64,000 bases of DNA from Patescibacteria group bacterium (GCA_034660175.1 JAYEIQ010000006.1:10201-74200); one strand, 5' to 3'. Positions 8,250-54,212 are shown, numbered from the stretch's first letter. Made by a program: numbers and translations. Notes: a model not told the origin generated them from the letters alone.

Positions 8250-8279
8250 CTCAGAATTCGAAATCAAAAAACACAGGAT

Positions 8280-9923: not shown

Positions 9924-9955
9924 GTTTAAAAATAAAATAAAAGTAGAACAAAAAT

Positions 9956-10660
9956 ATGGCGCTTGATTTTTTGACAAACAATAAAAACAAACAGGAGGAT
10001 CACCAAGGGACAAGCATGCAGGAATATCTGAATGTTGCTGAGATAAAGGATGGTGTGGTTGTTGTGAAAGATGGCTCTCTCAGAGTAGTTTTGGCGGTTT
10101 CTTCGGTGAATTTTGATTTGAAGTCTGACACAGAACAAGAAGCAATTATCTTTGGTTATCAAAGATTTCTCAACGCTCTGGATTTTCCGCTCCAGATCTT
10201 GATTAGCACAAGAAAATTCAACATCAAACCTTATATGCAGATGCTTGAGAAAAAGAAAGAAATAGAAAGGAATACGCTCATGAGAGGACAAATAGAAGAT
10301 TATTTGGTTTTTGTGAAGGAATTGGTTAGTGTCTCAAACATAATGTCAAAATTGTTTTATGTTGTAGTTCCTTTTTATGTTGTGGAGTCAAAAAAAGGTG
10401 GATTTTTCAGTAGGTTCACTGCTTCGTTTAAGGCAAGAAAGGTGCTTTATCAAAAAAGAGAAGAATATGAAACCTATAAAAACCAACTTCTTCAAAGGGT
10501 TGATGAGGTCAAGGAGTCTTTGAGCGGAACAGGAATTCGAATGGTTCAGTTGAACACACAAGAGCTTATTGAACTCTATTATAATTATTATAATCCTTCG
10601 GAGTTTGAACACACCTCAATTCCAGCACTTGAATCTCTTGGTGTTGAGGAGATTCGTTAG
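9956..10660 (+). CDS. VirB4/TraC N-terminal domain-like protein, apparently the separated N-domain of VirB4
   Basis: The motif IKDGVVVVKDGSLRVVLAVSSVNFDLKSDTEQEAIIFGYQRFLNALDFPLQILISTRK matches the conserved VirB4/TrbE N-terminal region. Only 25 nt separate it from the ATPase ORF. Confidence 0.5.
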   Translation: MALDFLTNNKNKQEDHQGTSMQEYLNVAEIKDGVVVVKDGSLRVVLAVSSVNFDLKSDTEQEAIIFGYQRFLNALDFPLQILISTRKFNIKPYMQMLEKKKEIERNTLMRGQIEDYLVFVKELVSVSNIMSKLFYVVVPFYVVESKKGGFFSRFTASFKARKVLYQKREEYETYKNQLLQRVDEVKESLSGTGIRMVQLNTQELIELYYNYYNPSEFEHTSIPALESLGVEEIR

Positions 10661-10685
10661 GAATTTTATAGTTAAAGCTTTATAA

Positions 10686-12575: not shown

Positions 12576-12593
12576 TTTTCTAAAAAAACTAAT

Positions 12594-13139
12594 ATGGATC
12601 AGGAGCAAGAATATTATAGTCAACTTGTGCGTAATCGTAATTTGCACAGAATGGAATTTGCGAAAGAGATGGCAAGTGATTTTTCTGCTGAAAAAGAAGC
12701 ACAAAATAAGAAATATGGAAACTACGCAGATACCGCTCGAACAATGCGAAGAGTTGCTGCTGGTTCAAAGATCAGGGCTCCAATTGAAGCTGTGAATCTT
12801 GGTTTCAAATTGAGACACGAATTGAAACAAGGAGAGGGATCCGCTCTCAAGCTTGCTTTATTTTTTGCTACTGTTATTGATTTTATTGACATCATTCCTG
12901 TTGCTGGTTGGTTGGTAACTTTATTTTTTAAGCCTATTTTGTTCATTATGCTTTGGGGTTATGGAACATGGAAATTAAAATTACTCAGAGCTGTTCTTCT
13001 TATGTTTGATTGTATACCTCTTGTGAACAAGATTCCAATGAGCGTTGCCAGTGTTGTTTACACCTATCATGTGATTAATAAAAGAAAAAAGGAGGCTCGA
13101 AAGGAATTGGATGAATTGCAAAAAGTTTTTGATGTTTGA
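12594..13139 (+). CDS. Hypothetical membrane protein
   Basis: A 181-aa ORF with about three transmembrane helices in the C-terminal half. It lies in the T4SS-like cluster. Confidence 0.35.
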   Translation: MDQEQEYYSQLVRNRNLHRMEFAKEMASDFSAEKEAQNKKYGNYADTARTMRRVAAGSKIRAPIEAVNLGFKLRHELKQGEGSALKLALFFATVIDFIDIIPVAGWLVTLFFKPILFIMLWGYGTWKLKLLRAVLLMFDCIPLVNKIPMSVASVVYTYHVINKRKKEARKELDELQKVFDV

Positions 13140-13182
13140 GAAGAGTTGATTTTGAGAAAAGAAAAATTAAAGATATTTTGAA

Positions 13183-13872
13183 ATGTTTATTATTGCAGAT
13201 AAAAAGAAAACAGAATTGCTTTTGGTGCTGATCGGGTTTGTGGTTATCACATTGCTCATTGAGTTTTTTTTGTCGAAGATTGAAACAGATGGGGTTTGGG
13301 AATGGGCCTTATTATCAATGGTGTTTTTCTTGTTCACTCCTCTGTTCATAGTCAAAAAGCTTTGGAAAAAGACTTTCAAGGAATATTTTTTGTCACTTGA
13401 TGTTTCAATAAAAGCAATTGTTATTAGTCTGACTGCTGTGTTGATTTATGTTGCTGTAATGTGGCTTCTTGTGGTACAATTGAATTGGAGAGGGCATTTG
13501 ACTGTTTCAAGGTGGATTCTCGGAAGTACTGGCTTTTTGTTGTTCGTTGACCTTGTTGTCATGCCGTTTGTGATCTTTGCCAGAGAGTTCTTTTTTAGAG
13601 GTTTTATCTTGAAGTCAGCAGTGGGAGTATTGGGAATGGTTGGTGCAATTGTTTTTCAGTCAATTCTTGCCACTGGATATGATGTCTATATAGGTGGATT
13701 TTCTGATTGGGTGGGTGCTTGGCCTCAGATAGTGTTATTACTATTCTTTAATGCCATGCTTGGGTTTGTTGCTTTGGTAAGCAGGTCAATTATTGTTACA
13801 TCAATAATTTCCTGGGCACATTTTTTGTTTGTCGATCTATTTTTTGCATATCAACTATCAAATTTCAGTTAA
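13183..13872 (+). CDS. Polytopic membrane protein with a weak CPBP (CAAX protease) family resemblance
   Basis: At least six transmembrane helices. AREFFFRGFIL resembles CPBP motif 1 (EExxxR...FRG). Later motifs are poor. Confidence 0.3.
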   Translation: MFIIADKKKTELLLVLIGFVVITLLIEFFLSKIETDGVWEWALLSMVFFLFTPLFIVKKLWKKTFKEYFLSLDVSIKAIVISLTAVLIYVAVMWLLVVQLNWRGHLTVSRWILGSTGFLLFVDLVVMPFVIFAREFFFRGFILKSAVGVLGMVGAIVFQSILATGYDVYIGGFSDWVGAWPQIVLLLFFNAMLGFVALVSRSIIVTSIISWAHFLFVDLFFAYQLSNFS

Positions 13873-13900
13873 TTAAACCTGGATTTGAAAAAAACAAACT

Positions 13901-16768: not shown

Positions 16769-16771
16769 CAA

Positions 16772-17188
16772 ATGAAAACAAAAAAAATATATAAATTTGT
16801 ACGCCTAGTTTTTCTGAGCGCTATTTCTGTAATGGCTCCAATGGTTGTTTTTGCTGGGAGTTATGTAACAAGAGAGCCCATCCCTGGTGCTCCAAGAAGA
16901 AATAATTTTATTGAATATCTTGGAGATTTGTATGGGTTTGGAATCGCAGTGGCTGCCATTTTGGCCATATTTATGATTTCTTTTGGTGCATTTGTCTATA
17001 TTGTTAGTTCTGCGGGAAATTCTGCCAAGATGGGAAATGCTAAGGATATGATTTTTAATGCCATTTATGGTCTCATTATTGCCCTTATAGCCTACTTGAT
17101 CCTCTTTGTTGTTAACCCTGATCTTGTTAGAGGAACGATTGATTCCGTTCCTCCTGCTAGAGACTTTATGACTAATAGAGGGCCTTAG
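16772..17188 (+). CDS. VirB2/TrbC-like pilin-family protein
   Basis: A signal peptide plus two transmembrane helices with a conserved core (GAFVYIVSSAGNSAKMGNAKDMIFNAIYGLIIALIAYLIL). The same core is shared with the eight paralogs at 45.9-50.3 kb. Confidence 0.5.
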   Translation: MKTKKIYKFVRLVFLSAISVMAPMVVFAGSYVTREPIPGAPRRNNFIEYLGDLYGFGIAVAAILAIFMISFGAFVYIVSSAGNSAKMGNAKDMIFNAIYGLIIALIAYLILFVVNPDLVRGTIDSVPPARDFMTNRGP

Positions 17189-17229
17189 CAAAAACATAAA
17201 AGTTTTTAGAACAAAATCAAAACATAAAA

Positions 17230-18360
17230 ATGACAAAGAAAATATTTATTGTTTCAGCTATTATTTTCGCAATAGCAATTAGTGCCTTGATTGTTTCCAA
17301 GGTTTTTTTGTCTGAAAAAGGTTCGTCTAGTTTAAGTATTGATAACCCATTTTCAGATGATGAAGATGATGATGAAAAAGAGGTTGAAAGTCCCAGTGAT
17401 GCAGTTATCTCAAAAGTGCTTGACAGAGAGGTGAAGGGTGTGGTTTTGACTGGCTCAAGCCAACTTATGTTCTATAATGATCAAAAAGTTCTTTCAACAA
17501 ATTTTGAAGGAAAAAAACTCAAGTCGTTGGGTGCGTATCCTTTTGTAAAGGTTCGGGATTTTGATTGGCACCCAAAAAATGAAAAAGCCTTAGTCAATGA
17601 TAACGGCAAGTATTATACCTATTTCCTCAAAGACAACTCTGCTCGTGAATTTGCTCTGAATGCCGATGTTGCCAAATGGGATGTTTTTGGTGATAGAGTT
17701 ATATACAAAAAATATGATGTCAATTCATCAAAGAGGATAATAGGAGTTGTAAATTCATCGGGAGAGGAACAGCGAACTTTGGTCGAAGACCTTCCTTTTA
17801 AGAAAGTTGATTTTACGGTGCCTCAAAAAAAGAACTTTTTTTGCTATTTCCCAACATCGGACAGTTTAGTTAGTGGAAATCTCATTTGTGTTGACGTGAA
17901 AAGCAACGAGCAAAAACAGGTCCACGCTGATTCTTTTGGTGCAGACTACTTGCTCTCACCAAATGGAAAGAAAGTGCTTATTTCATCTGCTCAAAAGAGG
18001 GGTGGAAATAAGCTTATTCTTGGGGTGATGAGCTTGAAAGGGGCTGAATTTCAAGGTTTGAATTTTTCCACTTCGGTTAAAAAGTGTGTTTGGGCAAAAG
18101 ATAGTAAGCACATTTTCTGCGGAGCTATAAATGCTATTCCGGGTCAAGCTGTTATGCCAAATGATTGGGAGAACAAGAAATACTATTCTTCAGACACGTT
18201 TTGGAAGATAAATACTGATAATGGAAAACAAACCAGGCTGATCGATCTTGAACAAACACCTGGTCATCTTGATGGAGCTAACTATTTTCTTGATGAAAAA
18301 GAAAAAAACTTGTTTTTCATTGAAAGAAAGTCAGGTCATCTTTACAAGGTCAGTCTCTAA
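17230..18360 (+). CDS. N-terminally membrane-anchored hypothetical protein with an extracytoplasmic domain
   Basis: A 376-aa ORF with a single N-terminal transmembrane segment. No catalytic motif recognised. Confidence 0.4.
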   Translation: MTKKIFIVSAIIFAIAISALIVSKVFLSEKGSSSLSIDNPFSDDEDDDEKEVESPSDAVISKVLDREVKGVVLTGSSQLMFYNDQKVLSTNFEGKKLKSLGAYPFVKVRDFDWHPKNEKALVNDNGKYYTYFLKDNSAREFALNADVAKWDVFGDRVIYKKYDVNSSKRIIGVVNSSGEEQRTLVEDLPFKKVDFTVPQKKNFFCYFPTSDSLVSGNLICVDVKSNEQKQVHADSFGADYLLSPNGKKVLISSAQKRGGNKLILGVMSLKGAEFQGLNFSTSVKKCVWAKDSKHIFCGAINAIPGQAVMPNDWENKKYYSSDTFWKINTDNGKQTRLIDLEQTPGHLDGANYFLDEKEKNLFFIERKSGHLYKVSL

Positions 18361-19588
18361 TTGTCTGCTTTGTCATCGTAAGATGGCTCAAGAAAAACCA
18401 AAAGAGCACAGCAAGATCATTTTTCCAAAAAGGAACATCGATCATTCCGTGGAATAGAAAGTAAATCAAAATAACAAGTGAAATCGCAACTGACGAGGAT
18501 GCGATTTTTGTTTTAGTTGAGGTGAATGCTTTGAAGTTCAAGAAGAGAATTGCTATTACTGATGCAAGGCCTCCCTCAATCCACAGGTGCAAAAGCATGT
18601 TGTGAGCATGGGGGATTGCCCATTGAGGATATGGAGGAAAGTGAGGTTGATAGTTTAGATATGATATTTGAAAGTTGTTGCTGCCTATGCCAAGAAGTAT
18701 ATGATCAATAAGAATCATTTTACTTGATAGGTATACAGCAATTCTTGAATCAAGGGATGTTGCAGGAACTGATGGTGAGTATTGAATTATTTCCAAGAAA
18801 AGTTCTAGATTAACAATGGTGAACAAAAACAAAAGATTAAAGAAAAGCAGAAATAATGCTAGTCTTTTCGCAGCATAAAAATTAATTTTTAAAAGAAAAT
18901 AGAAAAATAAGGAAACAATGAGTCCGATCCAGGCTCCCATGGAATCAGTTTTAATTAAAGAAAAAAGATTGGCTGCAAGTAATAGTGTGAGAGTTGTTTT
19001 GAATAGCGAGGGGTATTGATTGAAAAACTTGTTCTGCTTTGTTGTTGTCTTGAGCAGGTTAATTCCCAAAAGAATAGCAACTACAAGGAGTGATGCAAAA
19101 AAGTTAGGTGACTCATAAATAAAGTCCAAACGATTATCGAAAGTGAGTCTGTTTGTGATGACAAAAAAATATCCGAAAATACCTTGAAAACTGATGCTAA
19201 CAAAAAGAATCCATTGGATTTTCACAAAAGAAAGAACTCCCTTTTTTGACAGGTTGGCAGCAACGATGCCAAAGAGTATGGGCAATACGACAAAACTTTT
19301 GAGTGTTCCAAGACTGCTAGACCAAGAAGATTTTTCTGCGTTGAACAAAAAAGAAAAGAGGAAAGACAAAAGAAAGGTTGATACAGATATAAAAAAAAGC
19401 TTATTTTTACTTAAGAATATCCCTAGTTCTTTTCTGGAAAAAGCTGATATAGACTTTATAGAGCCGAAAAGAATACAAACAAAAAGAAGAATATCTAAAA
19501 AATTAACACTTCCAATTGATCCAATGGGAAATCTGAAAAAATAGGAAGGTAAAATCAGGAAAGTTAGATAAAAAAGGCTATTCATCAT
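18350..19588 (-). CDS. Wzy_C/O-antigen ligase (WaaL/PglL-like) family membrane protein
   Basis: At least ten transmembrane helices. The C-terminal loop carries AIPHAHNMLLHLWIEGGLAS, matching the H-x-HN...E-x-G motif of the O-antigen ligase / O-oligosaccharyltransferase family. Confidence 0.6.
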   Translation of the reverse strand: MMNSLFYLTFLILPSYFFRFPIGSIGSVNFLDILLFVCILFGSIKSISAFSRKELGIFLSKNKLFFISVSTFLLSFLFSFLFNAEKSSWSSSLGTLKSFVVLPILFGIVAANLSKKGVLSFVKIQWILFVSISFQGIFGYFFVITNRLTFDNRLDFIYESPNFFASLLVVAILLGINLLKTTTKQNKFFNQYPSLFKTTLTLLLAANLFSLIKTDSMGAWIGLIVSLFFYFLLKINFYAAKRLALFLLFFNLLFLFTIVNLELFLEIIQYSPSVPATSLDSRIAVYLSSKMILIDHILLGIGSNNFQISYLNYQPHFPPYPQWAIPHAHNMLLHLWIEGGLASVIAILFLNFKAFTSTKTKIASSSVAISLVILIYFLFHGMIDVPFWKNDLAVLFWFFLSHLTMTKQTIRD

Positions 19589-20825
19589 CTGATTTGAGAG
19601 AAAGTAAAATTAAGAAAAGGGGAAAAACACGTATAGAATAAATTGGAGTTTCGAAAAAAGAGTGGACCAAAAAGATGAGGAATGATGTGGCGAGAAGTTT
19701 TTTGAAAAGAGTAGGTTTTTTGAGAAAGGCAAAAATTGGAGAGAGAACTAAGCAAAACAAAAGAGAGGCACCCAAGATGCCAATTTCAGAACTGAAATCT
19801 AAAAATAAATTGTGCGCATATATTGGATCTCGAAATTGTGAAGTCGGTTGAATGTAACGAGAGAAATTTCCGATGCCAACTCCGCCAAAGGGATGAGTTG
19901 TTGTGATTTCAATCCCCTTTTGCCACATTTCAATTCTTCCTTTATTGGAGCCTTCTTTTGTGTCAAAAGAAGACTCGAGTCTTTGGGTGAGTGGATTTGG
20001 AATGGCAACAATATAGAAAAGGAATGTTGCCAAAACAGTGGTGGCTAGGATGTATTTTTTGATTAAACAGATAGGTTTGCTTGAAAGAAAAAGAAAGATC
20101 AGACCAAAAATCAAAGACAAATAGGCAGCTCTTGAAAAAGCTAGAGCACTTGCGATGAACAAAGTTATTGCAAATGCTAGGTATAACCTCTTTTTCTCTT
20201 TTATGTAAAGATAGACGGTTAATGGAAGAACCATGTTTATGTAGAGTGAAAAGAGGTGTGGGTCTGGAAATGTTCCAAATGTTCGAAGTATTGTTCTTCC
20301 CTGAATATTTACTAGCCAACTTGGGAAAGTAGCCACTATGTCCGAAAAAGTGTTTCCCAAAAAGACAGGAGCAATGAACCTTGAAGCAAGATCAAGTGGA
20401 AAATTTATTCCAAAAATAAATTGTAAACAGAAGACTATTATTGCAAAGACAGAAACAGTAAAACTGCCCCAAGCGAGAATTTTGTAAAGAAACGTTTTAG
20501 TTTCTTCTTTTTGTGTGAGAGCGAAAGAAATAAAATACAGGGGCATAAGAGAAAAAAGAAAAAGTATTTTTCTGGTAGCTCTTTGTTGGTCAATAGCCCA
20601 AAAGATGGAAAGTAGTGACAGAAGGGCAATTCCCAAAAGGAAAAAAAGGCGAATCCTCTTGTCGAGCAGGAAATGTTTTTCTTTCAGTGAATAGGCAAGC
20701 CAAAAAAGAAAGAGTATGGGAACAAAAATCCTCGTTAAAGAAAGGTCAATTCCCTGAGTAGGGTTCAGGGCAAAACTGAAAGGAATGATAGTTACAAAAA
20801 TCCAAAACAATAATTGGGGTTTCAT
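19578..20825 (-). CDS. Wzy_C/O-antigen ligase family membrane protein, a tandem paralog of the upstream gene
   Basis: Polytopic. The motif is DPIYAHNLFLDFSSEIGILGA, the same family motif. It overlaps the upstream paralog by about 10 nt, so the two are co-transcribed. Confidence 0.6.
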   Translation of the reverse strand: MKPQLLFWIFVTIIPFSFALNPTQGIDLSLTRIFVPILFLFWLAYSLKEKHFLLDKRIRLFFLLGIALLSLLSIFWAIDQQRATRKILFLFSLMPLYFISFALTQKEETKTFLYKILAWGSFTVSVFAIIVFCLQFIFGINFPLDLASRFIAPVFLGNTFSDIVATFPSWLVNIQGRTILRTFGTFPDPHLFSLYINMVLPLTVYLYIKEKKRLYLAFAITLFIASALAFSRAAYLSLIFGLIFLFLSSKPICLIKKYILATTVLATFLFYIVAIPNPLTQRLESSFDTKEGSNKGRIEMWQKGIEITTTHPFGGVGIGNFSRYIQPTSQFRDPIYAHNLFLDFSSEIGILGASLLFCLVLSPIFAFLKKPTLFKKLLATSFLIFLVHSFFETPIYSIRVFPLFLILLSLKSDDE

Positions 20826-30754: not shown

Positions 30755-34054
<3,300 letters not shown>

Positions 34055-34361
34055 TCCAACTGACCATTTTCATTTAGGTTGATAGGAAAAATTGTATATT
34101 TAGCTAGAATATATTGCTTTGGAGTTCAAAAAATTCGCAAATGTATTTAATATACGTAGAGAATTTTTTAAACGAAAAGCATACAGACTGGTTGAAGATG
34201 CGGTTTTTAACATTAATCTAAATGTAAATGGTCAGTATACATGGCTTGGCATTTGAGTTTATACTTTTTTGTATAAGTTCTTCCGCCGGGCTAAATGACT
34301 AGCAATTAAGAAAGATTGAATGAGTTTATATCAAAAGTAAGCTCTTAATTAGATAATTTTG

Positions 34362-34860
34362 TCTTGGTGGTCCTTGTGGGATGGGTACACCTGTTTCTCC
34401 GCTCAAGAAGTGGCGGACAGATATCCCTATATCGTTTTCACTGTGCTTGGTGCTTTTTGCGGAGTGGGTACACCTGTCCTACTTCGTTTCGTCAAGACGG
34501 AACTACGAAGGATAAATTTCCATCCTTTACCACGTACCATTTAAATTCAGTGTCCTTGGTATCTTTTGCGAGAGGGGTACACCTGTTTCCATCCCGAACA
34601 CAGAAGTTAAGTCTCTCAGCGCCGATGGTAGTCGTAAGGCAAGAGTAGGTCGGTGCCAAGGACAGTGGATTTAAATATCAAATGGTATACTGTGGCGAAC
34701 ACAGAAGTTAAGCACTCTGGCGTTGATGGTAGTCACAAGGCAAGAGTAAGTCAATGCCAAGCACAATGCAAACAAGCTGAGCCGACTTGTCTTGCCAAAG
34801 CCAAAGCGAAAGCGTCGGCGGGTGGTAGCCTCAAGGCAAGAGTAGGTTGTCGCCAAGACA
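34362..34860 (+). repeat. Array of decayed partial 5S rRNA copies flanking the intact 5S. Two 5'-half-like copies lie upstream and two 3'-part copies lie downstream.
   Basis: 5'-half copies: CTTGGTGGTCCTTGTGGGATGGGTACACCTGTTTC at about 34362 and CTTGGTGCTTTTTGCGGAGTGGGTACACCTGTCC at about 34445. 3'-part copies: GCGAACACAGAAGTTAAGCACTCTGGCGTTGATGGTAGTCACAAGGCAAGAGTAAGTC at about 34693 and AGCGTCGGCGGGTGGTAGCCTCAAGGCAAGAGTAGGTTGTCGCCAAGACA at about 34811. Confidence 0.6.
34552..34665 (+). rRNA. rrf: 5S ribosomal RNA
   Basis: Contains ...CCTGTTTCCATCCCGAACACAGAAGTTAAG...GCCGATGGTAGT... with terminal helix TCCTTGG/CCAAGGA. Confidence 0.7.
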
Positions 34861-44031: not shown

Positions 44032-44094
44032 TTCCAATCTCACATCTACGCTCACGAGCAATTATTGCTCAAGAGCACGGAAAAGGAGAATGAC

Positions 44095-45141
44095 ATGAAA
44101 ATAATTCAAAAAAGCTTGCTCGTCAGTTTACTCATTATAACAGGTCTAGTCGTGTTTTCGGTCATTTCGTTTTTGTTGAAAGACTGGTATCTGTTCGGAG
44201 GGTCTTCATTCTTAGGACTGGTAACTCTATATTTGACAATTTTCAGAGTGAAAGATGTCTTCATCGCTATTCCCTCCAGTATATTTGTTGGTCGGATAAG
44301 AGGTTTGGACGAAAATAGCTTTTCCATTCCGATCGGAAAACCTTATAAGGAGGGTATCCACTTAAAGCCATTTTGGTGGCGACTGACTTTCGAGTCACGG
44401 AGTGTCAAGCAATTGAAAATTGACAAGCAAGAATATCAGGTTGGTTCTGGCGGAACTGTTCTGGTCAGTGGGCTGGTTCAGTATCGAGTCTCAGATGTCA
44501 CAGGGTATCGGGTTGCGGAAATAGGCCAACAAGAAGTGGTCGATGGAATCTCTTCCGAGGTTGACCAAATCATCATCAAATGCCTGGGAAGAATCCTCTC
44601 TGCTGATGATGTCGCAAAAGGGGATGGGGGTGCTTTGGAAGGTGAAACCAAAATGTCTCTGGATATAGAAGCGAGTGGAGAGGTGAATGTTTTTTCTGGT
44701 ATTGACATCGCTATCCAATCCAAGGCAAAACTGAACATAGAATTGGAAGTGCAGTTTGGAAAAATGGAACTTGACAGTCAAGGCAGAACCAGGAGGCTCT
44801 TCGCTCATGATGTTGCATACGCCGAACAAAGCTATGGAGTGGAAATCCTCAAGGCTAGAATCGACAAGATCGACCCGATCGATGAGATCAAAAAAAGTCG
44901 GGACAATATCCAGGTTGAGAGGTATGAAGTGCGTAGTGAAAAAATTCAGATTGCACACTTTGCAAACAGAGTGGAAGAAACGAAAGATAAACTCGGAATT
45001 GAAACCGAGAGGGCGATTGAGATTGTTATGCTCAACATGAAGCTCACCACCAAAGACATCAAACAATTTCAGGTTGATGGCGTTGCCGGATTGGCGACGT
45101 TGGTCGAGAGTTTTCTCAAGAACAAAGGAGGTAAATTATGA
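44095..45141 (+). CDS. SPFH/band-7 (stomatin/prohibitin-like) domain membrane protein
   Basis: An N-terminal transmembrane segment, then EGIHLKPFWWRLTFESRSVKQLKIDKQEYQVGSGGTVLVSGLVQYRVSDVTGYRV, which resembles the SPFH core. RBS AAAAGGAG. Confidence 0.5.
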   Translation: MKIIQKSLLVSLLIITGLVVFSVISFLLKDWYLFGGSSFLGLVTLYLTIFRVKDVFIAIPSSIFVGRIRGLDENSFSIPIGKPYKEGIHLKPFWWRLTFESRSVKQLKIDKQEYQVGSGGTVLVSGLVQYRVSDVTGYRVAEIGQQEVVDGISSEVDQIIIKCLGRILSADDVAKGDGGALEGETKMSLDIEASGEVNVFSGIDIAIQSKAKLNIELEVQFGKMELDSQGRTRRLFAHDVAYAEQSYGVEILKARIDKIDPIDEIKKSRDNIQVERYEVRSEKIQIAHFANRVEETKDKLGIETERAIEIVMLNMKLTTKDIKQFQVDGVAGLATLVESFLKNKGGKL

Positions 45142-45845
45142 GCAGCATAATTATTAGTTGCATGTTTGTTCTTGTTGCTATTGGGCTGCTCATGTGGGGC
45201 AGAAACTGGAGCAGTTCCGGAGGACTGTCGGTGCTAGACAGAATTAAGAGACTGGGAAGTTTTGTTCGTGTACCCAGTTTTATAAAAAAACTGTCACCGA
45301 TCAGGATAATCAATTTATTTATTGTTGCTGGGTCAGGTGTCATTTTTTTTGGGGGTGTTGCTTACATTCTAAGTGACGTCGGAGGCGTTGATTTGTTTGA
45401 TGCCACCGAGAAGGCAGCACAAAGGGCTCTGGGTAGTAAACCCGCAGCTCAAACAACTCCTGAGGTTCAAATCGACCTGGCAAACCTATTCGATTTGAGC
45501 CAAGAGCGTCGAATGTTGACGCTCAACTGTAGGTATCAAAAGGTCATTTTGACGAGTGACCTGAAGATCCAAGCAACGGGTGGCAAGACATATGCGCTGT
45601 TTGGGTCTGAAGATACAGGGATAGCCAAGGTAAAGCTTGCAAACCTTGGTTATCAAAAAGTTGAAGGGCGACTGGAACGGACAAACACGTTCCTCGTTCT
45701 TCGCAGAGGAAGTATAATTGACTTCCTCGAGGGCGACAGAACTATAAATTTCGTCGCTTCCGGGGGTCACAAGGTGTATCTTGTGCCAAAAACACAAGGT
45801 GCATCTATTGTCTTTTCCTACAAGGAGTTCAAAGGACCCGTGTAG
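45138..45845 (+). CDS. Two-transmembrane membrane protein with a C-terminal soluble domain, possibly an NfeD-like partner of the SPFH protein
   Basis: A 235-aa ORF whose ATGA start overlaps the SPFH stop. The call rests on architecture only. Confidence 0.35.
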   Translation: MSSIIISCMFVLVAIGLLMWGRNWSSSGGLSVLDRIKRLGSFVRVPSFIKKLSPIRIINLFIVAGSGVIFFGGVAYILSDVGGVDLFDATEKAAQRALGSKPAAQTTPEVQIDLANLFDLSQERRMLTLNCRYQKVILTSDLKIQATGGKTYALFGSEDTGIAKVKLANLGYQKVEGRLERTNTFLVLRRGSIIDFLEGDRTINFVASGGHKVYLVPKTQGASIVFSYKEFKGPV

Positions 45846-45912: not shown

Positions 45913-46278
45913 TTATGAAAGAAGATATTCGATGGTGTAGACAATAATCAGTGCGCCACACACAATGGTGACGGCAATGATGGAATAAACAAAATTATGC
46001 TTGGCATTCTCTGCCATGGATGTGCTTCCGAAAGAAAGAAGATACTGAATTCCAGTTACGATGAAGCTGATGATGGAAAGCATCAAGAATACGATTAGAA
46101 TCCAACCAAGAACTGTTGTTGTTACAGTTATGACGGGATTTACTCCTCCAGGATCAGGCAAGCCTGTTCCGTTTGGAATTGCAACAGCGTGAACTGGGCT
46201 GAAAAATCCAAAGACTCCTGCTGTCAGCAAAAAAATAAAGGAAAGTGTGACCAGTGAAAGAAGTTGTTTTTTTCGCAT
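45913..46278 (-). CDS. VirB2/TrbC-like pilin-family protein (paralog 1)
   Basis: The start was taken at the internal MRKKQLL. It has a signal peptide and two transmembrane helices with core GIQYLLSFGSTSMAENAKHNFVYSIIAVTIVCGALII. Confidence 0.5.
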   Translation of the reverse strand: MRKKQLLSLVTLSFIFLLTAGVFGFFSPVHAVAIPNGTGLPDPGGVNPVITVTTTVLGWILIVFLMLSIISFIVTGIQYLLSFGSTSMAENAKHNFVYSIIAVTIVCGALIIVYTIEYLLS

Positions 46279-46295
46279 TTTTTTGTTTTGTTTTT

Positions 46296-46931
46296 TTAAA
46301 CTAAGTCCGCAACGAGTCTGATGATTGAATATGATCCAATTGCAACGGCAAGGCCAATAATGGAATAAACTATCCATTTTTTTGCTCTGCCTGTAACATT
46401 TGGGTCTCCGCCAGACAAAATCAACATGAGACCAGAAGCAACAAATGCTATGACTGCCAGATATGTCAAAACCAGGAGCAACCAAAGCATTATTCTCAGG
46501 AAGATTGAATCAACCATTCCTGGCATTCCCAAACCTAAGAGAGTGAATACTGTGCTGAGAAATGGAATTCCAATCAATGTTGCTATTGTTATGACAATAG
46601 AAAGTGAGGCAAGGGCAACAGCCAAACCGAAAATTGCATAAGTGATCCATCGTTTGGCTCTGCTGGCAAGGTCAGCATTCCCTCCTGAGATGATAAGCAT
46701 TATACCTGCTGCAACAAATGCCATAACAGATAAAAGTGTAAGAACTGAAAACAACCATAGTAGAACAGTTATAAGCACAAGCAAAAAGTCGGTTGTTGGT
46801 AGCATGGATGTGTTCGTGGCAAGGTTTAAACCCGTGTTCCACTGAGCGGAGGCTATGAAAGGTATTGCTAGAAGCGACAGAATGGATGATCCTATCAAAA
46901 GATTACTAAGTTTTTTTTGTATCTTTTTCAT
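46296..46931 (-). CDS. VirB2/TrbC-like pilin-family protein with two tandem pilin domains (paralog 2)
   Basis: Two copies of the core lie in one ORF. The first is AAGIMLIISGGNADLASRAKRWITYAIFGLAVALASLSIV. The second is ASGLMLILSGGDPNVTGRAKKWIVYSIIGLAVAIGSYSII. Confidence 0.5.
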   Translation of the reverse strand: MKKIQKKLSNLLIGSSILSLLAIPFIASAQWNTGLNLATNTSMLPTTDFLLVLITVLLWLFSVLTLLSVMAFVAAGIMLIISGGNADLASRAKRWITYAIFGLAVALASLSIVITIATLIGIPFLSTVFTLLGLGMPGMVDSIFLRIMLWLLLVLTYLAVIAFVASGLMLILSGGDPNVTGRAKKWIVYSIIGLAVAIGSYSIIRLVADLV

Positions 46932-46954
46932 GAAAAAGAGTTTAGTGAGTTATT

Positions 46955-47296
46955 TTAATTTAAAAAATGTTTAATTACATTGATTATCACATAACCTACA
47001 AGAGAAAGGATTATTCCCACTAAGGAAGCCATTCCAGTTTTTCTTGCTCCACCGAGAACATTCTCATCTCCTCCTGCAACGATGAATTTTATTCCAGAAA
47101 AGACAAGTCCTATAAGTGAAGAGAGGAACAATAGAGCAAGAAATACATTCATTGCATCAGTAACTGTGTTAAAAGTTTCTCTTCCCTGAATTGAAAATTC
47201 AGAAGGAGTTTCTTTTGGTTGTTCGACAAACTGTGCGTGCGTTAATAATGGAACAAACAAAAAAGCACAAGAAAAAAGAAGTATTTTTGTTTTCAT
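46955..47296 (-). CDS. VirB2/TrbC-like pilin-family protein (paralog 3)
   Basis: Signal peptide plus the core FSGIKFIVAGGDENVLGGARKTGMASLVGIILSLVGYVII. Confidence 0.5.
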   Translation of the reverse strand: MKTKILLFSCAFLFVPLLTHAQFVEQPKETPSEFSIQGRETFNTVTDAMNVFLALLFLSSLIGLVFSGIKFIVAGGDENVLGGARKTGMASLVGIILSLVGYVIINVIKHFLN

Positions 47297-47437
47297 AGAA
47301 GAAAGTTTTGCTGGTTTTTTGTAATTTTTTTGATTTCGACAAAGACATATTTACTTCATTTTAGCAAACCAGAGTCAAAATAACAAGCCTCGTAAAGAGG
47401 CTTGTTATGTGAGATAGTCTTCCTAGGAAGAAGATCT

Positions 47438-47803
47438 TTATCTGCCTTGGACTGTTGTAGAAAGTGTTTCAGCAACAAAGCGAACTACGATGTAACCTAA
47501 CAATGCAACAACAATTCCAATGATTGAATAGGTGAGCCACTTTCGAGCATCGTCTGCTCGATCTGATCCACCTGCTGTAACGAACATGATTCCAGAAATG
47601 ACGAATCCAATTACAGCAACGAAGGTCAAGATCAAAAGCAACCATTGCAAGACAGTAAAGATAATGCCGGCTATGGTAGAGTTCTGTAGTGCTGTTGTGC
47701 CTCTGTCTCGATCAACGTCAAATTGAGCGCCAACCAAAAGAGGAGCTCCCATTACCAAAGTTGCAACTCCAAAGGCCATCAATTTTTTTGTACTAAGTTT
47801 CAT
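47438..47803 (-). CDS. VirB2/TrbC-like pilin-family protein (paralog 4, copy A)
   Basis: Core ISGIMFVTAGGSDRADDARKWLTYSIIGIVVALLGYIVV. The protein is identical to that of 47959..48324. Confidence 0.5.
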   Translation of the reverse strand: MKLSTKKLMAFGVATLVMGAPLLVGAQFDVDRDRGTTALQNSTIAGIIFTVLQWLLLILTFVAVIGFVISGIMFVTAGGSDRADDARKWLTYSIIGIVVALLGYIVVRFVAETLSTTVQGR

Positions 47804-47958
47804 TGTAACACCTCGCTTTCTAGATTTATTTTTATTTTTCGGATATAAAACTTGACTTGTCCGAATGTTATTTACTTCATTTTAGCAAACCAGAGTCAAA
47901 ATAACAAGCCTCGTAAAGAGGCTTGTTATGTGAGATAGTCTTCCTAGGAAGACTATCT

Positions 47959-48324
47959 TTATCTGCCTTGGACTGTTGTAGAAAGTGTTTCAGCAACAAA
48001 GCGAACTACGATGTAACCTAACAATGCAACAACAATTCCAATGATTGAATAGGTGAGCCACTTTCGAGCATCGTCTGCTCGATCTGATCCACCTGCTGTA
48101 ACGAACATGATTCCAGAAATGACGAATCCAATTACAGCAACGAAGGTCAAGATCAAAAGCAACCATTGCAAGACAGTAAAGATAATGCCGGCTATGGTAG
48201 AGTTCTGTAGTGCTGTTGTGCCTCTGTCTCGATCAACGTCAAATTGAGCGCCAACCAAAAGAGGAGCTCCCATTACCAAAGTTGCAACTCCAAAGGCCAT
48301 CAATTTTTTTGTACTAAGTTTCAT
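47959..48324 (-). CDS. VirB2/TrbC-like pilin-family protein (paralog 4, copy B; 100% identical protein)
   Basis: Identical 121-aa translation to 47438..47803. Confidence 0.5.
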   Translation of the reverse strand: MKLSTKKLMAFGVATLVMGAPLLVGAQFDVDRDRGTTALQNSTIAGIIFTVLQWLLLILTFVAVIGFVISGIMFVTAGGSDRADDARKWLTYSIIGIVVALLGYIVVRFVAETLSTTVQGR

Positions 48325-48384
48325 TGTAACACCTCGCTTTCTAGATTTATTTTATTTTTATTTTTAACACAACTTTTTTGTTTT

Positions 48385-48987
48385 CTAAAAAAATAATGCG
48401 ATTTGCCTGACGAGGATTAATGATCCTGCTGCAATTGCTATCCCAATTATTGAATACTTCATTGCCTTTTTTGCATTCTCTGCCTGAGTAGTTCCTCCTG
48501 CAGCAGCCAAATACATGATGCCACTGACTGTTAGGCCGATTATAGCAAGCATGCCCAAAATTGACAATAAAAAGGAAAGTGCTCTTGTGACAATTTCTGC
48601 GATTGTTGGTGCGGCCGAAAGGTTGGTGGGAATTGTTGTAGTTGGGCTACCATAGATGATTATTTGGATTTCTCGCAGAAAAGATGGTCCCGCCATGGCA
48701 AGCGCAAATCCAACAATAGCTCCTATCATGCACATTTTCGCAGCTGTGACCAGGGATGAGTTTCCTGCTGAAGAAATATAGAGAACTCCCGCAATGACAA
48801 GAAATAAAACAGAAAGAAAGGCGATGACTCCTTGTAGATGTGAAAGAATTGACTGGAAAAAGCCGGTTATTGTTCGATTTGCCATGAAATTAAATGACAC
48901 AGAGGCATGTGCAAAATCACTTGTAAAGAAAAGTGCACTAAACAAAAAAGCAAAGGATGATATTCCGATAATTGTCTTTCTTTTCAT
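48385..48987 (-). CDS. VirB2/TrbC-like pilin-family protein (paralog 5, longer N-domain)
   Basis: Core VSGIMYLAAAGGTTQAENAKKAMKYSIIGIAIAAGSLILV, preceded by an extra hydrophobic hairpin. Confidence 0.45.
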   Translation of the reverse strand: MKRKTIIGISSFAFLFSALFFTSDFAHASVSFNFMANRTITGFFQSILSHLQGVIAFLSVLFLVIAGVLYISSAGNSSLVTAAKMCMIGAIVGFALAMAGPSFLREIQIIIYGSPTTTIPTNLSAAPTIAEIVTRALSFLLSILGMLAIIGLTVSGIMYLAAAGGTTQAENAKKAMKYSIIGIAIAAGSLILVRQIALFF

Positions 48988-49064
48988 AAAACAGTTTTTA
49001 TATTTCTGATTTAATTATAACACATAATTATCCAGGTAAACAAAAGGAGAGACATGCTCCTTTT

Positions 49065-49706
49065 TTAACTTAGTAGTGCAATTACCTGTTTGAGGATGAT
49101 CAAAGAAGCTCCCGCTATGGTTACTGCAAGGATGCTATAGAACATCATGCGCTTGGCAGTTTCGGCGCGCGATGTGTCGCCACCAGCAGAAATATACATT
49201 ATTGCAGAAACAACGAATCCTATAGTTGCTAAGACTCCAATGATTGTAAGAGCAAAGTTCATGATATTCTCAATGATTGTTGCAACAGGGGTCGCTGTTG
49301 AGATCAAACCGGGTCCTCCACCAACTCCACCCGCAGCTATATCCCTGATTTCTCTGAGCAACGATGGGGCGGCAACTGCAATCGCAAAGCCAACAAGTGC
49401 AAAAGTGATGATTGTTTTTGCCAAAGAGACTTGACTTGAATGTCCACCTGATGTGATATAAACAACACCGCCAATCACAATCATAATCACGGCTAACCAA
49501 CCAACAATGCCCTGAACACTGGCTAGAAAATTTGACAGAAGACCGGTGAAACTGTTGACTGTTAGTGGGTTTGGATAGTTTGGTCCAGCGATTGCAAGTG
49601 CTTCATTGAGCGGTATTGAAATCAAGATCAAAGAGAAAACAAAAACAAGAAAAGCGCTCATGGGAAGAATCTGTTTTGTTTTTCTGGATAGCCAGATAAT
49701 TTTCAT
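49065..49706 (-). CDS. VirB2/TrbC-like pilin-family protein (paralog 6)
   Basis: Core VSAIMYISAGGDTSRAETAKRMMFYSILAVTIAGASLIIL. Confidence 0.45.
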   Translation of the reverse strand: MKIIWLSRKTKQILPMSAFLVFVFSLILISIPLNEALAIAGPNYPNPLTVNSFTGLLSNFLASVQGIVGWLAVIMIVIGGVVYITSGGHSSQVSLAKTIITFALVGFAIAVAAPSLLREIRDIAAGGVGGGPGLISTATPVATIIENIMNFALTIIGVLATIGFVVSAIMYISAGGDTSRAETAKRMMFYSILAVTIAGASLIILKQVIALLS

Positions 49707-49744
49707 ATTTTTTTGTTATGGAGAAATATTTTGATTGTAAGATG

Positions 49745-50266
49745 TCAAAATGCACTAGTTGTACTGCAGGTAAAAGAATACCAATTAGCACCTCTTCCTA
49801 ACATTGAATTGCTGTCCGGATTGGCTGACATAAAAAGCAGAAGAGCATATACGATTAACCAGCTTAAGAGAAAAATTGCAAAGCCAGTCAAGGTTTTGGT
49901 TATTACTCCTTTGGCAATTGATTTAAGATTGGTATTTCCAGAAGAAATAACATAGGTGACACCACCCACCGTTAACAAAAACAAAGAAGCAATGATCAGT
50001 AGAGAAAGTAACAGATCGTATATATTTTTCACTAAAATGATGAAATGACAAAGAGTACACGATTGCTGTCCTTCTGCTCCTGCACAGCTGTTGCGCATAC
50101 CACATGGTACAAGTGGATCATTCAGTGTCCAAAATCCGAAACTTGTTCCTTCTGATGGGCATTGAGCGGAGACAATTTGTGGATGCAAAAGAAACAAACA
50201 GAAAGAAAGAACGATCACAAATGAAATGAAAAGTGAGGAAAGTTTAGTTTTTTTTGTAGATGTCAT
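49745..50266 (-). CDS. VirB2/TrbC-like pilin-family protein with a Cys-rich N-terminal module (paralog 7)
   Basis: A signal peptide, then CPSEG...CGMRNSCAGAEGQQSCTLC, then the core TVGGVTYVISSGNTNLKSIAKGVITKTLTGFAIFLLSWLIV. Confidence 0.4.
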   Translation of the reverse strand: MTSTKKTKLSSLFISFVIVLSFCLFLLHPQIVSAQCPSEGTSFGFWTLNDPLVPCGMRNSCAGAEGQQSCTLCHFIILVKNIYDLLLSLLIIASLFLLTVGGVTYVISSGNTNLKSIAKGVITKTLTGFAIFLLSWLIVYALLLFMSANPDSNSMLGRGANWYSFTCSTTSAF

Positions 50267-51639
50267 TTTTCTAGGTAGCTGTCTTTAATAATTAGGGCAT
50301 CAAATCTCGAAGATGCTGTGTCCAGGGCGTCGAGAGATGAAGCTTTTCCTGAAGTGACTTCATCGATCATTTCAACGAATATCTCTTCTACTGCTGAGTC
50401 GTCAGGTTGTTTCCATGTTTTGGCGGTGAGCGACTGATTTGCAAAAACTTCAAAAAACACATCCTCCTTTTGTTCTTCTACAAGGTCTCTTCTCGCTGCA
50501 GGTTTATTTGTTTTTTCAAGATAGTGCTGGGTTGCGTCAAATGTTTCACCAGCCAATGGAGGCAGAGTTACGAACTTGATATAGTCCCAAGCAGCTGCAA
50601 TGCGTTCCTCGTTGGTATAGTTTGCTTCTGCTGGAATTTCTCTATTTCTTGTAACTGCCATTCCCCAATACACACCATAATTAACTTTATTGTCTAGATC
50701 GAGTTGGGGGACTGGAGCGACGTCGAAATTAAGTTTTGGATCACTTTTGTTGAGGCGGTCTTTCCAGTATGAATAGTTGATCATCATAGCAACACGACCG
50801 AAGCGGAAACTGTCAATTGAATAATCCATTTTTGTATTCCATGTGTATACTTCAGAGCTTGCTTGTGAGAACTGAGTGTAGAAATTCAGAGCGTTCACAC
50901 CTGGATTTTCTGTTCCATGATTTGAAACGTTTATTGCTGAGAAGTTTTTGTCTCCTCTATTCATTTTTGAGCCACCCTGCATCATCATCAACATTAAAAT
51001 GTCAGATGACCTGTTGATAGCACCAGGATCTTTAGATCTTCCAAGCGCAATGGCCGAGCGTTCAATGTTACCATATTGATCGATCTTTGTTATGATCTTG
51101 GTTTGATCTCTGACTTCGCTCCATGTTTTTGGAGGTGAACTGATGCCTGATTGATTGAGCAAATCTTTGTTGTAATAAAGTGCAAGGGTGTCGTTATATA
51201 GTGGCATTGCATAGATCTGGTCGTCTTTCACAAAGTCTTCATAAGAGACATCAACAAATGAATTTTTGAACAGTGAAAGTTGTTTCTCGGACTCAGGAAG
51301 AGAAATGATCTTTTCTGAATGTTCAGGAAGCCAAGCACTGTTAAAGAAAACAATATCAGGCCCTTTTCCGCTTGCGAAAGCGTCTATTATCTCTTTTTCG
51401 AATTCTACTGGGTTTTGAGAGAGTTTTTTGTATTTAATTTGGGTTATATTTGGATTGATAATTTTGTACTCCTTGTTTATTCCATGAAATGCGTCAGAGT
51501 CATCAAATACACCCCACACCTCAAGGGATATCTTTTTTGCTCCTTTATCCTTTCTATCTTTGAAGCAACCTGAAAGAACAAAGGTCGCGATAACAAAGAA
51601 AAGGATGCTGATGACACCGAGAATTTTTTTTTGTTTCAT
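50263..51639 (-). CDS. Lipoprotein, an ABC-transporter extracellular solute-binding protein (family 1, sugar/oligosaccharide type)
   Basis: Lipobox LSGC. The size of about 458 aa and motifs (AMPLYNDTLALYYNKDLL) are typical of MalE-like solute-binding proteins. Its stop overlaps the start of pilin paralog 7. Confidence 0.65.
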   Translation of the reverse strand: MKQKKILGVISILFFVIATFVLSGCFKDRKDKGAKKISLEVWGVFDDSDAFHGINKEYKIINPNITQIKYKKLSQNPVEFEKEIIDAFASGKGPDIVFFNSAWLPEHSEKIISLPESEKQLSLFKNSFVDVSYEDFVKDDQIYAMPLYNDTLALYYNKDLLNQSGISSPPKTWSEVRDQTKIITKIDQYGNIERSAIALGRSKDPGAINRSSDILMLMMMQGGSKMNRGDKNFSAINVSNHGTENPGVNALNFYTQFSQASSEVYTWNTKMDYSIDSFRFGRVAMMINYSYWKDRLNKSDPKLNFDVAPVPQLDLDNKVNYGVYWGMAVTRNREIPAEANYTNEERIAAAWDYIKFVTLPPLAGETFDATQHYLEKTNKPAARRDLVEEQKEDVFFEVFANQSLTAKTWKQPDDSAVEEIFVEMIDEVTSGKASSLDALDTASSRFDALIIKDSYLEK

Positions 51640-51721
51640 TTTGTATTTTTGCTTTGAGTTATTTTCTGTTTTTAAAGCAATTCATGTTTTCTTTTCACAA
51701 GTTATTATACCACAAACGTTT

Positions 51722-51759
51722 CAAAAAATAAAAACACAGTCACCGATAGGTGACTGTGT
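51722..51759 (-). terminator. Rho-independent terminator of gyrA (minus strand)
   Basis: Hairpin ACACAGTCACC-GATA-GGTGACTGTGT followed, on the minus strand, by a T-run (TTTTTATTTTTT). Confidence 0.6.
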
Positions 51760-51779
51760 TTGCGCGCTGAATAAAAAAG

Positions 51780-54212
51780 CTACATAACTGTTGTCGCTGC
51801 GACTTTTTCGCCGCTTTTGAGTCTCATGATCTTGACTCCTTGAGTTGATCTTCCAAGAATAGAAATGTCTTTGACTGTGGTTCTGATGATCTGTCCTTTG
51901 TTTGAGCTAGCAATAAGATCTGTCCCTGAAACATCTTCTGTGACGTGAGCAGAAATCAGCCCACCGGTTTTTGAGGTGATGTTGGCTGTTTTGATCCCAC
52001 TTCCTCCTCTTGACTGAACTTTGTATTTTTTTAAGGAAGTTCTTTTGCCGTAGCCTTTCTCGCTGATGACTAGAAGTTCTGGTTTTTTATAGGAATTTCT
52101 AATCACGCTCATGCTGATCACAAAATCATCATTTTTAAGTCTGATCGCTCTGACGCCTGCGGCAGCTCGTCCCATTTGACGAACTTGGGATTCTTTAAAT
52201 CTAATTGATTGTCCATTTTTTGTTGCAATAATAAGGTCATCCTTTGATGAAGTTGTCTCGACCCAACCCAGAGAATCATCTTTTTGAAGTCGGATTGCAA
52301 TGAGACCGGATCGTCTAACCTTTTCAAAATCTTCCAATGGAGTTTTCTTTATTGTCCCATTTACCGTTTGCATGACCATATATCTTGCCTTTGAATCTTT
52401 CGGTATTGTTAGGATTGAGGTGATTTTCTCGCTTGGTGCAATTTGCAGGAAATTCACAATTGCCTGACCCTTGGCGGTTCTTGATGAGGTGGGAATTTCA
52501 TATGTTTTGAGAGAGAACACTTTTCCGGTGTTGGTGAAAAGGAACAACATGTCATGTGTCATTGAGCTGAGAACTTTGTCGACAGCATCACCTTTTTTTA
52601 TCGAACTACCTATCACTCCTGTTCCACCGCGTTTTTGTGTGCGAAAGGTGCCACAAGGGAGTCTTTTGATGTATCCATCTTCAGTCAATGAGATGATTGC
52701 TTCTTCGTTTGCTATAAGATCTTCTTGGGAAAAATCCCCAACAGCGCCTTTGATAATTGCTGTCTTTCTTGGTGTGCCATATTTCTCTTGCAACTCAAAG
52801 AGTTCTTTTTTTATTATGTTCAAAATCTTTTTAGGACTTTTCAGAATATCTTCAAGTTTTTTGATCAACTTTTTTTTCTCTTCAAGCTCATCTTCAATTT
52901 TCTTTCTTTCCAGTCCCGCTAGTGTCTGAAGTTTCATTTCCAGAATTGCTTCAGTCTGAAGGTCTGAAAGAGAAAAGTTTTTAATCAAATTATTGTGAGC
53001 TTCTTCTTTTGTTGGTGATTTTTTGATTGTTGATATGACTTTGTTGATATGATCAAGGGCTTTTTTTAGTCCTTCCAAAATGTGAGCACGTGCCTTCGCT
53101 TTGTTGAGTTCGAATTTCGTTCTTCTGGTGACGATGTTTTGTCTGTGAGAAACAAATTGTTCAATAATCGACTTCAAGTTAAGGATTCTTGGTTCAATCC
53201 CTTCAACAAGCGCAAGCATGTTGAGATGAAAAGTTTTTTGCAACTCTGTTGATGTATAGAGCTTGTTCAAGATTTTTTTTGGAAAGGCATCTTTTTTCAG
53301 GTCAATTACAATGCGGACTCCGTCTTTATCGGATTCATCACGCAGATCTTTGATTCCCATAATTTTTCCATCTTTCACAAGATCTGCAATTTTTGAGACC
53401 AAAGTTGATTTGTTTGTTTGATAGGTGATTTCAGTTATCACAATCTGAAACAAACCTCTCTTTGATTCTACTATATCTGTTTTTGCCCTCGTCACAAGGC
53501 CTCCTCGACCAGTTCTGTATGCTTCAACAATATCTTTTTGGTTGTATAGTGTTCCGCCAGTAGGAAAGTCAGGCGCTTTAATAAACTCAACTAGCTCTTC
53601 AATCGTTATTTCTTTGTTTTCGATATATGCAACAATTCCATCAACTAATTCAGAAAGATTGTGCGGAGGAATATTTGTTGCCATTCCGACTGCAATACCA
53701 ACGGTTCCATTCAAGAGCAATTGAGGAAATTTTGCTGGGAGAAATGATGGCTCTTTTCTTGTTCCGTCATAGTTGTCCACAAAATCAACCGTTTCTTTGT
53801 CAATATCAAAAAGCATTTCTTCTGCTAAAGCTCTCAGGCGTGCCTCTGTGTATCGCATAGCCGCAGGATTGTCACCGTCCATTGATCCAAAGTTTCCTTG
53901 TCCTTCGACAAGCATGTCTCGCAGAGAAAAGTCTTGAGCCATTCGCACCATTGCATAATAAACCGCACTATCACCATGAGGGTGGTATTTTCCCAAAACC
54001 TCTCCAACCACGGTTGCTGACTTGCGGAACTTTGCCGTGTGTTTGAGTCCCAGTCTCCACATTGCATAGAGAATTCTTCTATGGACTGGTTTGAGACCAT
54101 CTCGCACGTCTGGCAGAGCTCTTTGAACAATAACGCTCATTGCATATGACAAATAGGATTCCTCCATTTCTTGAGTGATTGGTCTTTTTTCAATTTTTCC
54201 GATTTCTTCCAT
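51780..54212 (-). CDS. gyrA: DNA gyrase subunit A
   Basis: [29 protein letters not shown] and an active-site Tyr region ([10 protein letters not shown]). C-terminal beta-pinwheel repeats. Confidence 0.95.

Follow-up and report, generated by a model that had tools for sequence, protein, structure and literature searches.

In a 64,000-nucleotide stretch of DNA from a Patescibacteria group bacterium (GCA_034660175.1 JAYEIQ010000006.1:10201-74200; hereafter the window, with positions counted from its first letter), an operon at 45913-51639 encodes a solute-binding protein (SBP) and eight small hairpin proteins, P1 to P8. With good but not full confidence, we read it as a carbohydrate-type binding lipoprotein encoded together with eight VirB2-like pilin proteins of a type IV secretion system (T4SS), which would form a fixed set of subunits with differing roles, assembled by that T4SS. 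The evidence consists of sequence features, and the steps of the mechanism and the assembly of a pilus are read from homology. The array is a further example of a kind already described in Patescibacteria and no new system. When 3,035 Patescibacteria genomes were searched with the Pfam models PF18895 and PF04956, 383 assemblies proved to hold 441 arrays, each of 2-11 VirB2-like genes; identity averaged 25% and reached at most 54%, and abundance was greatest in Microgenomatia and Saccharimonadia (Quinonero-Coronel et al. 2025, PMC12102498). An array was defined there as at least two pilin genes in tandem, or with one non-pilin gene between them, in a genome with a VirB4-type T4SS; the window holds eight consecutive pilin genes, with VirB4, PrgI, and TraC-like genes at 9.5-12.6 kb. 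Judged by comparative sequence evidence, four details are useful and apparently undescribed: the conserved SBP partner, pilins fused into doubles, a candidate for the major pilin, and the class of P1, some of whose members bear hydrolase domains.

One pilin family behind a lipoprotein gene

The operon opens, on the minus strand, with the SBP gene (50263-51639; 458 aa), followed by P1 (49745-50266; 173 aa, a single core with a Cys motif), P2 (49065-49706; 213 aa, a double, two-hairpin pilin), P3 (48385-48987; 200 aa, double), P4 (47959-48324; 121 aa, single core), P5 (47438-47803; 121 aa, the same protein as P4), P6 (46955-47296; 113 aa, a divergent single core), P7 (46296-46931; 211 aa, double), and P8 (45913-46278; 121 aa, single core), the last gene. 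An earlier note on this DNA had described the eight small open reading frames (ORFs) downstream of the SBP gene as paralogs with a ninth homolog at 16772, and both points hold: all eight lie on the minus strand and belong to one family (PF18895, T4SS_pilin), as does P9 (16772-17188, plus strand) within the T4SS cluster. A hidden Markov model of the core matches exactly the eight array ORFs and P9, each with at least 82 bits, and of the 721 ORFs in the window the runner-up reaches 5.8 bits; the window also holds several polytopic membrane proteins, yet the model picks these nine ORFs only. Leave-one-out profiles recover each of the nine members at E<=2e-11. Family relatedness here is a matter neither of chance nor of general transmembrane composition.

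Five array proteins exceed the PF18895 gathering cut-off of 26.6 bits: P2 (60.5 bits) and P3 (57.8 bits), each over two stretches, P4 and P5 (30.6 bits each), and P7 (30.2 bits, two stretches). P8 (25.7 bits), P9 (22.8 bits), and P1 (20.6 bits) are tied to the family because their leave-one-out profiles recover them at 5e-16, 1.8e-11, and 1.7e-12, respectively; for P6 the value is 5e-14. The TrbC/VirB2 model itself (PF04956, cut-off 27.9 bits) is matched by 6 of 41 relatives from the P2 family (best E 2.8e-10), which by profile score is superfamily kinship through relatives and not direct membership, and some relatives carry the NCBI names "pilin" or "TrbC/VirB2 family protein." The assignment to a VirB2/TrbC-like T4SS pilin family is borne out by the PF18895 matches, the reach of relatives to TrbC, and the VirB4/PrgI T4SS in the same window.

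Every protein has the signal peptide and hydrophobic hairpin core proposed earlier, with a basic N terminus, a hydrophobic stretch, an AxA-type site, and one or two hairpins. The predicted cleavage sites are AxA-type sites read by eye, followed by Gln in 4 of the 8 array proteins, and the hairpin helices are joined by a short loop with an invariant A-K/R. The core motif given in the earlier note survives in part: across 11 aligned cores (P9 and the 10 distinct ones of the array, P4 and P5 being the same), invariance is confined to a single G and to the A of the A-K/R pair, and the remainder is looser, with Y-S-I-I-G/A in 5 of the 11. Core divergence between paralogs is likewise real, at 14-46% identity, except that P4 and P5 are identical; at this level synonymous sites are saturated. 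AF2 models show a signal helix and four long helices for P2 (pLDDT 80) and hairpin helices at residues 40-76 and 82-119 for P4 (pLDDT 70). P4 also falls exactly at the Pfam cut-off (29.1 bits) of TctB, the small subunit of SBP-dependent tricarboxylate transporters, probably a match of hydrophobic composition, if a curious one given the adjoining SBP gene.

The region is one real, well-delimited operon, probably with internal terminators. A terminator between gyrA and the SBP gene (51732-51761, minus strand, 13-bp stem plus T-run) means that a new transcription unit opens at the SBP gene, and a terminator-like hairpin with a U-run lies 3' of P8 (45857-45894, minus strand, -17.4 kcal/mol, z = -3.3). 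The SBP stop and P1 start share ATGA, the 4-nt overlap that had been noted, and cotranscription of SBP and pilins is plausible from this overlap, the gyrA-SBP terminator, and the conserved adjacency of the genes. The last gene had been drawn as an ORF at 45913-46485 with a TTG start. An ORF of that extent would share 190 nt with P7, and the ATG at 46278 makes the more plausible start. A scan for consensus promoters gave counts not above those of shuffled sequence, and internal promoters are therefore not claimed. Convergent on the array, a 358-aa protein at 44065-45141 without a Pfam match has homologs just after the array in loci L006 (35% identity) and L009 (28%), and may be a further conserved neighbor.

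Positional orthologs, double pilins, and a duplicated gene

Related loci comprised eight genome loci reached through the SBP and further loci reached through pilin and SBP homologs. P1, P2, P3, P4/5, and P8 each score higher against their positional ortholog than against any window paralog, with 162-207 bits for P2 orthologs versus 138 for P3, and 119-140 bits for P1 orthologs versus 42 for a paralog; P6 has weak positional orthologs only. The order of SBP, P1-class gene, two double pilins, and single pilins recurs in L004, L006, L008, and L020. Compared with L004 and L006, gyrA is 71% identical, SBP about 54%, and the pilins 35-55%; pilin divergence is fast, only moderately above that of SBP, and not hypervariable. 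A scan for invertible or shufflon-like repeats returned terminator palindromes only. Paralogs closer to each other than to their orthologs, the mark of a lineage-specific expansion, are found in the P4/P5 pair and P7 only, and recent events are limited to the P4/P5 duplication and the lineage-specific double P7. Since most paralogs have positional orthologs in related genomes, the comparison favors an old, fixed set of specialized, co-assembling subunits rather than variants of an antigenic type. The expansion had been put down to an antigenically or host-range variable family, a view that orthologs outscoring window paralogs and the recurrent gene order do not support.

Three ORFs, not one as first described, contain two cores (P2, P3, and P7), which brings the array to 11 cores in 8 ORFs. 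The first cores of P2 and P3 are 45% identical and the second cores 44% (P2a to P3a and P2b to P3b), a pairing which makes the double architecture older than the P2/P3 split; the 63 homologs of P2 have a median length of 211 aa. In P7, each core is most closely related to the other (46%), and among the fetched loci no P7 ortholog with a double core was found, so that P7 is a separate, younger, lineage-specific internal duplication.

P4 and P5 lie in a tandem repeat of 485 nt (copy A, 47348-47832; copy B, 47869-48353; period 521, 36-nt spacer), each copy consisting of a ribosome-binding site, the gene, and 3' hairpins. The copies differ by 2 mismatches at 47432-47433, in the 3' hairpin, and show zero coding differences. 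The duplication spans the whole P4 unit, by which gene dose would be doubled. Two strong hairpins follow P4 (47870-47958, minus strand, -35.9 kcal/mol, z = -7.5), the second with a U-run and terminator-like, and the same element follows P5 (47349-47437, minus strand). The ribosome-binding site of both, GAGGTG, lies 7 nt before the ATG. Shine-Dalgarno use in this genome is very low: a match of at least 5 nt was found in just 7 of the 53 window genes and one of at least 6 nt in 3, two of them P4 and P5. The third is a convergent neighbor outside the array (45138-45845), with the longest match, 8 nt, AAGGAGGT. Among P4 orthologs, an intrinsic terminator is present in 9/9 and a (G)GAGGTG site in 6/9; in the remaining 3 the called ORF start leaves just the 5' half of the site in the 30-nt view. 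P4/P5 is probably the major, abundant pilin, because a strong ribosome-binding site together with its own terminator is typical of an abundant structural subunit.

Adjacent P4-like pairs, 40-61% identical, occur at 8655-9499 in L012, 10828-11664 in L015, 9780-10615 in L016, and 9110-9984 in L017. The putative major pilin may have been duplicated repeatedly, or long ago, and the window pair is the sole identical one seen.

The binding lipoprotein and the Cys-motif class

The SBP carries both marks of ABC-transporter SBP family 1, an SBP_bac_1 domain (PF01547, 81 bits, with PF13416) and a lipid anchor signal. Its lipobox, LSGC at residues 21-24, is present in 112/119 SBP homologs. The closest solved structures, 4r9f and 5ysb, are oligosaccharide-binding SBPs, and against NCBIfam equivalogs all scores were far below cut-off. 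The gene precedes or adjoins a T4SS_pilin array in 14/14 informative related loci (7 from the genome scan, L010, L015-L017, and L018-L020; the eighth scan contig ends right after the SBP gene), with SBP identity to the window of 36-55% and two flanking contexts, gyrA-SBP-array and methyltransferase-SBP-array-NusA. Many P2 and SBP homologs come from contigs of matching length, some of them just 2.4-3.5 kb long. An SBP is not present in every array, as L012 shows. A Pfam scan covering 59 window ORFs yielded no ABC permease or ATPase, and no called gene for either lies beside the SBP in the eight loci with gene and Pfam tables (in the genome loci L003-L009 the screen took in pilin cores and a few of the window's proteins only, not transporter genes), so that in the window and these eight loci the SBP is not encoded beside a permease and ATPase of its own. 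It is likely, from this pattern of gene neighborhoods, a dedicated functional partner of the array. Our guess for its role is binding of host-surface or cell-wall-derived glycans at the contact site, with capture of released sugars or pilin handling as alternatives. Neither the SBP-pilin link nor a fused VirB2 of the double-pilin type is described in the literature searched, PMC12102498 and PMC10633639 included.

One paralog had been credited with a Cys-rich N-terminal module; in P1, five Cys do lie in the mature N region, and a sixth lies near the C terminus. Its motif LVPCG...C-T-L-C-H directly precedes helix 1, and helix 2 is followed by W..F.C; in P1 orthologs P-C-G...C-T-L-C-H and W..F.C are invariant. 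A P1 profile search of 1.84 billion representatives gave 1880 clusters at E<=1e-10. Among the best 150 of these 1880, lengths range from 132 to 965 aa, with the module at either end or mid-protein, and CxxCH is kept in 144/149 top matches (P0195-P0343). A T4SS_pilin match was found in 78 of the 97 long members, and 11 of the 97 carry cell-wall hydrolase domains (SLT, 4; NlpC/P60, 3; SLT_3, 2; 3D, 1; Amidase_6, 1). Several others bear CARDB or Ig-like domains, and most extensions have no Pfam match. In L010 a pilin-SLT fusion (5225-6280) is the gene right after SBP, and the window P1 is the bare form, without a large extracellular domain. This domain content suggests that the P1 class is a minor pilin presenting enzymes or adhesins; the pilin-hydrolase fusion would join a VirB2-like anchor to a VirB1-like enzyme, a combination not found described in the T4SS literature searched.

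CxxCH, placed on the outer side of the membrane, is the classic attachment motif of haem c, in a phylum said to lack respiratory chains. In the P1 class it could be a haem c site, or equally a metal or disulfide site; a literature search returned nothing relevant on CxxCH in Patescibacteria. The C-terminal extensions of two P1-class proteins (L004 11415-13595 and L007 4934-6604) gave zero Pfam matches. Their S-x-H-x-x-G...V-D and H-x-H-like motifs recall LAS/M15 zinc peptidases and, by eye, resemble those of zinc D,D-peptidases.

Genomic setting, rival explanations, and related systems

The nearest loci come from Candidatus Moraniibacteriota, and by sequence affinity the source, a metagenome-assembled genome, is a Moranbacteria-like member of the Patescibacteria (Parcubacteria group). 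The origin-proximal T4SS cluster (6327-18360, plus strand) is of the monoderm type, with dnaA and dnaN, where the window begins, immediately upstream. It encodes a membrane protein of 7 segments whose likeness to VirB6 is one of topology only (6327-8249), PrgI/VirB3 (9507-9923), a TraC-like protein (9956-10660), VirB4 (10686-12575; P-loop_TraG, 103 bits), and a 955-aa surface protein (13901-16768) with a signal peptide, a single C-terminal anchor, and no Pfam match. The last ends 3 nt before P9 and may act with the T4SS as its surface or adhesin partner. The best relative of P9 among the fetched loci is a pilin in L013, itself in a T4SS cluster. No relaxase or coupling protein was found in the window, and no VirB5, VirB7, VirB9, or VirB10 was recognized among the window ORFs scanned with Pfam. 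The placement of the T4SS beside dnaA/dnaN matches a layout published for Paceibacteria.

Elsewhere in the window, the T4SS cluster is directly followed by genes for two adjoining membrane proteins of the O-antigen ligase-like Wzy_C type (18350-20825, minus strand). The 23S rRNA gene (30757-34056) has 3300 nt versus a 2925-position model, leaving about 375 extra bases, an insertion or intron of a sort often reported in the candidate phyla radiation. A 5S rRNA gene follows (34555-34661) and no 16S gene is adjacent (SecA lies upstream), so that the rRNA genes look unlinked.

In the mechanism we propose, Sec would export each pilin, the signal peptide would then be cut, and the protein would sit in the membrane as a helical hairpin with its basic A-K/R loop on the cytoplasmic side. 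The VirB4/VirB3/VirB6-like machine, about 30 kb away, would extract the pilins and polymerize them into a pilus or conduit toward a host cell. P4/P5 would serve as the abundant major subunit, P2 and P3 as covalent double subunits, and P6, P7, and P8 as minor subunits, and P1 would be a Cys-motif member of the class that displays cell-wall hydrolase or adhesion domains in other genomes.

Several points weigh against this reading. P1, P8, and P9 stay below the PF18895 cut-off, P6 has no Pfam match at all, and no window protein reaches the PF04956 threshold, which only P7 approaches with a match of 21.4 bits. Fold searches returned generic helical-hairpin matches only, to thousands of unrelated structures, and a profile of the double-pilin family gave zero matches among PDB sequences. 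The array sits about 30 kb from the T4SS genes; polymerization into a pilus is taken from homology, no pilus having been seen in this lineage; the case for a major pilin comes down to translation and termination signals; and an ABC importer encoded beyond the 64-kb window may be all that the SBP serves. A rival explanation takes the hairpin proteins not for filament subunits but for components that stay in the membrane, in a complex for uptake or sensing whose receptor is the SBP. It would account for the conserved SBP adjacency without a called ABC permease gene alongside and for the position of P4 at the TctB cut-off (some relatives brush the DctQ model too), and an import role has already been proposed for the patescibacterial T4SS; but the TctB/DctQ matches do not exceed threshold and lie on hydrophobic helices, which can score by composition alone, and the predicted cleavable signal peptides, the T4SS_pilin/TrbC family, the location of P9 inside the T4SS cluster, and the SBP-less array in L012 make it highly unlikely.

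The paralogs could instead be interchangeable surface-exposed variants for antigenic or host-range variation, as proposed for the VirB2 arrays of Anaplasma and Bartonella, an idea that PMC12102498 itself raises for Patescibacteria. Their low mutual identity fits, as does pilin divergence somewhat faster than that of SBP on the same contigs; set against this are the positional orthologs of P1, P2, P3, P4, and P8 with their order conserved across genomes, the lack of recombination machinery and invertible repeats, and the expression signals that set P4/P5 apart. Moreover, Southlakia epibionticum cannot do without its pilin series taken as a whole, which suggests non-redundancy of single genes, and we consider variation unlikely. 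That the identical P4/P5 pair is an assembly artefact, leaving a true array of seven genes, is quite improbable: the copies are identical in their coding part and the maximum identity within published arrays is 54% (PMC12102498), but they differ at two positions and have distinct outer junctions, P4-like gene pairs recur in other lineages, and an independent short-read Logan unitig (L001, equal to window 48324-53133) ends 30 nt inside copy B, breaking exactly at the repeat edge as a real repeat predicts. A fixed set of T4SS pilin subunits is our preferred reading.

With the published Patescibacteria arrays, the window array shares the phylum-level group, PF18895, tandem divergent paralogs, an MPF-FATA-like T4SS near dnaA/dnaN, and, within the window, the lack of a recognized relaxase or coupling protein. 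It differs in lying about 30 kb off the T4SS cluster, in the SBP lipoprotein at its head and its three double-hairpin genes, in a 100% identical pair where the published maximum is 54%, and in its Moranbacteria-like source, published arrays being described as commonest in Microgenomatia and Saccharimonadia. The predicted pilin series inside the T4SS locus of Southlakia epibionticum is essential (Wang et al. 2023, PMC10633639). The VirB2 arrays of Anaplasmataceae and Bartonella (cited in PMC12102498) likewise consist of several tandem paralogs in host-dependent bacteria with reduced genomes; they are read as immune-evasion variation, whereas the window paralogs appear old and positionally conserved.

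TrbC/VirB2 (PF04956) proteins of diderm T4SSs share with the window proteins a small signal-peptide precursor, two hydrophobic helices, a short basic loop, and a VirB4-type ATPase, but the window host is monoderm and its proteins stay under the PF04956 threshold. The Agrobacterium VirB2 precursor has 121 aa, equal to P4. Head-to-tail cyclization is known for the T-pilin and RP4 TrbC; in contrast, the window has covalent tandem subunits. The Mbov_0395 pilin-like protein of Mycoplasma integrative and conjugative elements (NF045849) is also a small hairpin protein of a monoderm T4SS, and P3, P4, P8, and P9 match its model weakly (17-21 bits, E 3e-4 to 2e-3; cut-off 40), a lead on origin and not membership, which hints that monoderm T4SSs may already have had small hairpin proteins. 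Extracytoplasmic binding proteins tied to a T4SS and sensing partner or host are known as the PrgZ/TraC pheromone-binding proteins of enterococcal plasmids and ChvE of Agrobacterium, which act through Opp permeases or the VirA kinase. These belong to other SBP families, whereas the window SBP is of the family-1 carbohydrate type and is encoded directly before the pilin genes.

More tentatively, and with clear doubt on our part, the SBP-headed array could be a distinct conserved module of the Parcubacteria group, in which a T4SS filament of several kinds of subunit has the carbohydrate-binding lipoprotein as its direct partner, for example in recognizing or capturing glycans of the host envelope where the cells touch, or in pilin chaperoning. 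This filament would have one major pilin, fused double pilins replacing cyclization, and CxxCH pilins presenting hydrolases or adhesins. Recent reviews regard the patescibacterial T4SS as essential for the epibiotic lifestyle and its function as completely unknown, and a 2025 review singles it out as the first T4SS of a monoderm with a possible conjugative-type pilus. If the proposal is true, the SBP-headed module would give this T4SS, still without an assigned function, a concrete form as a host-piercing or feeding apparatus. The locus itself provides points of attack for tests: a candidate major pilin that could be purified or labeled, double pilins that constrain subunit packing, a hydrolase-carrying pilin class, and an array-linked binding protein that could point to the ligand or host structure.

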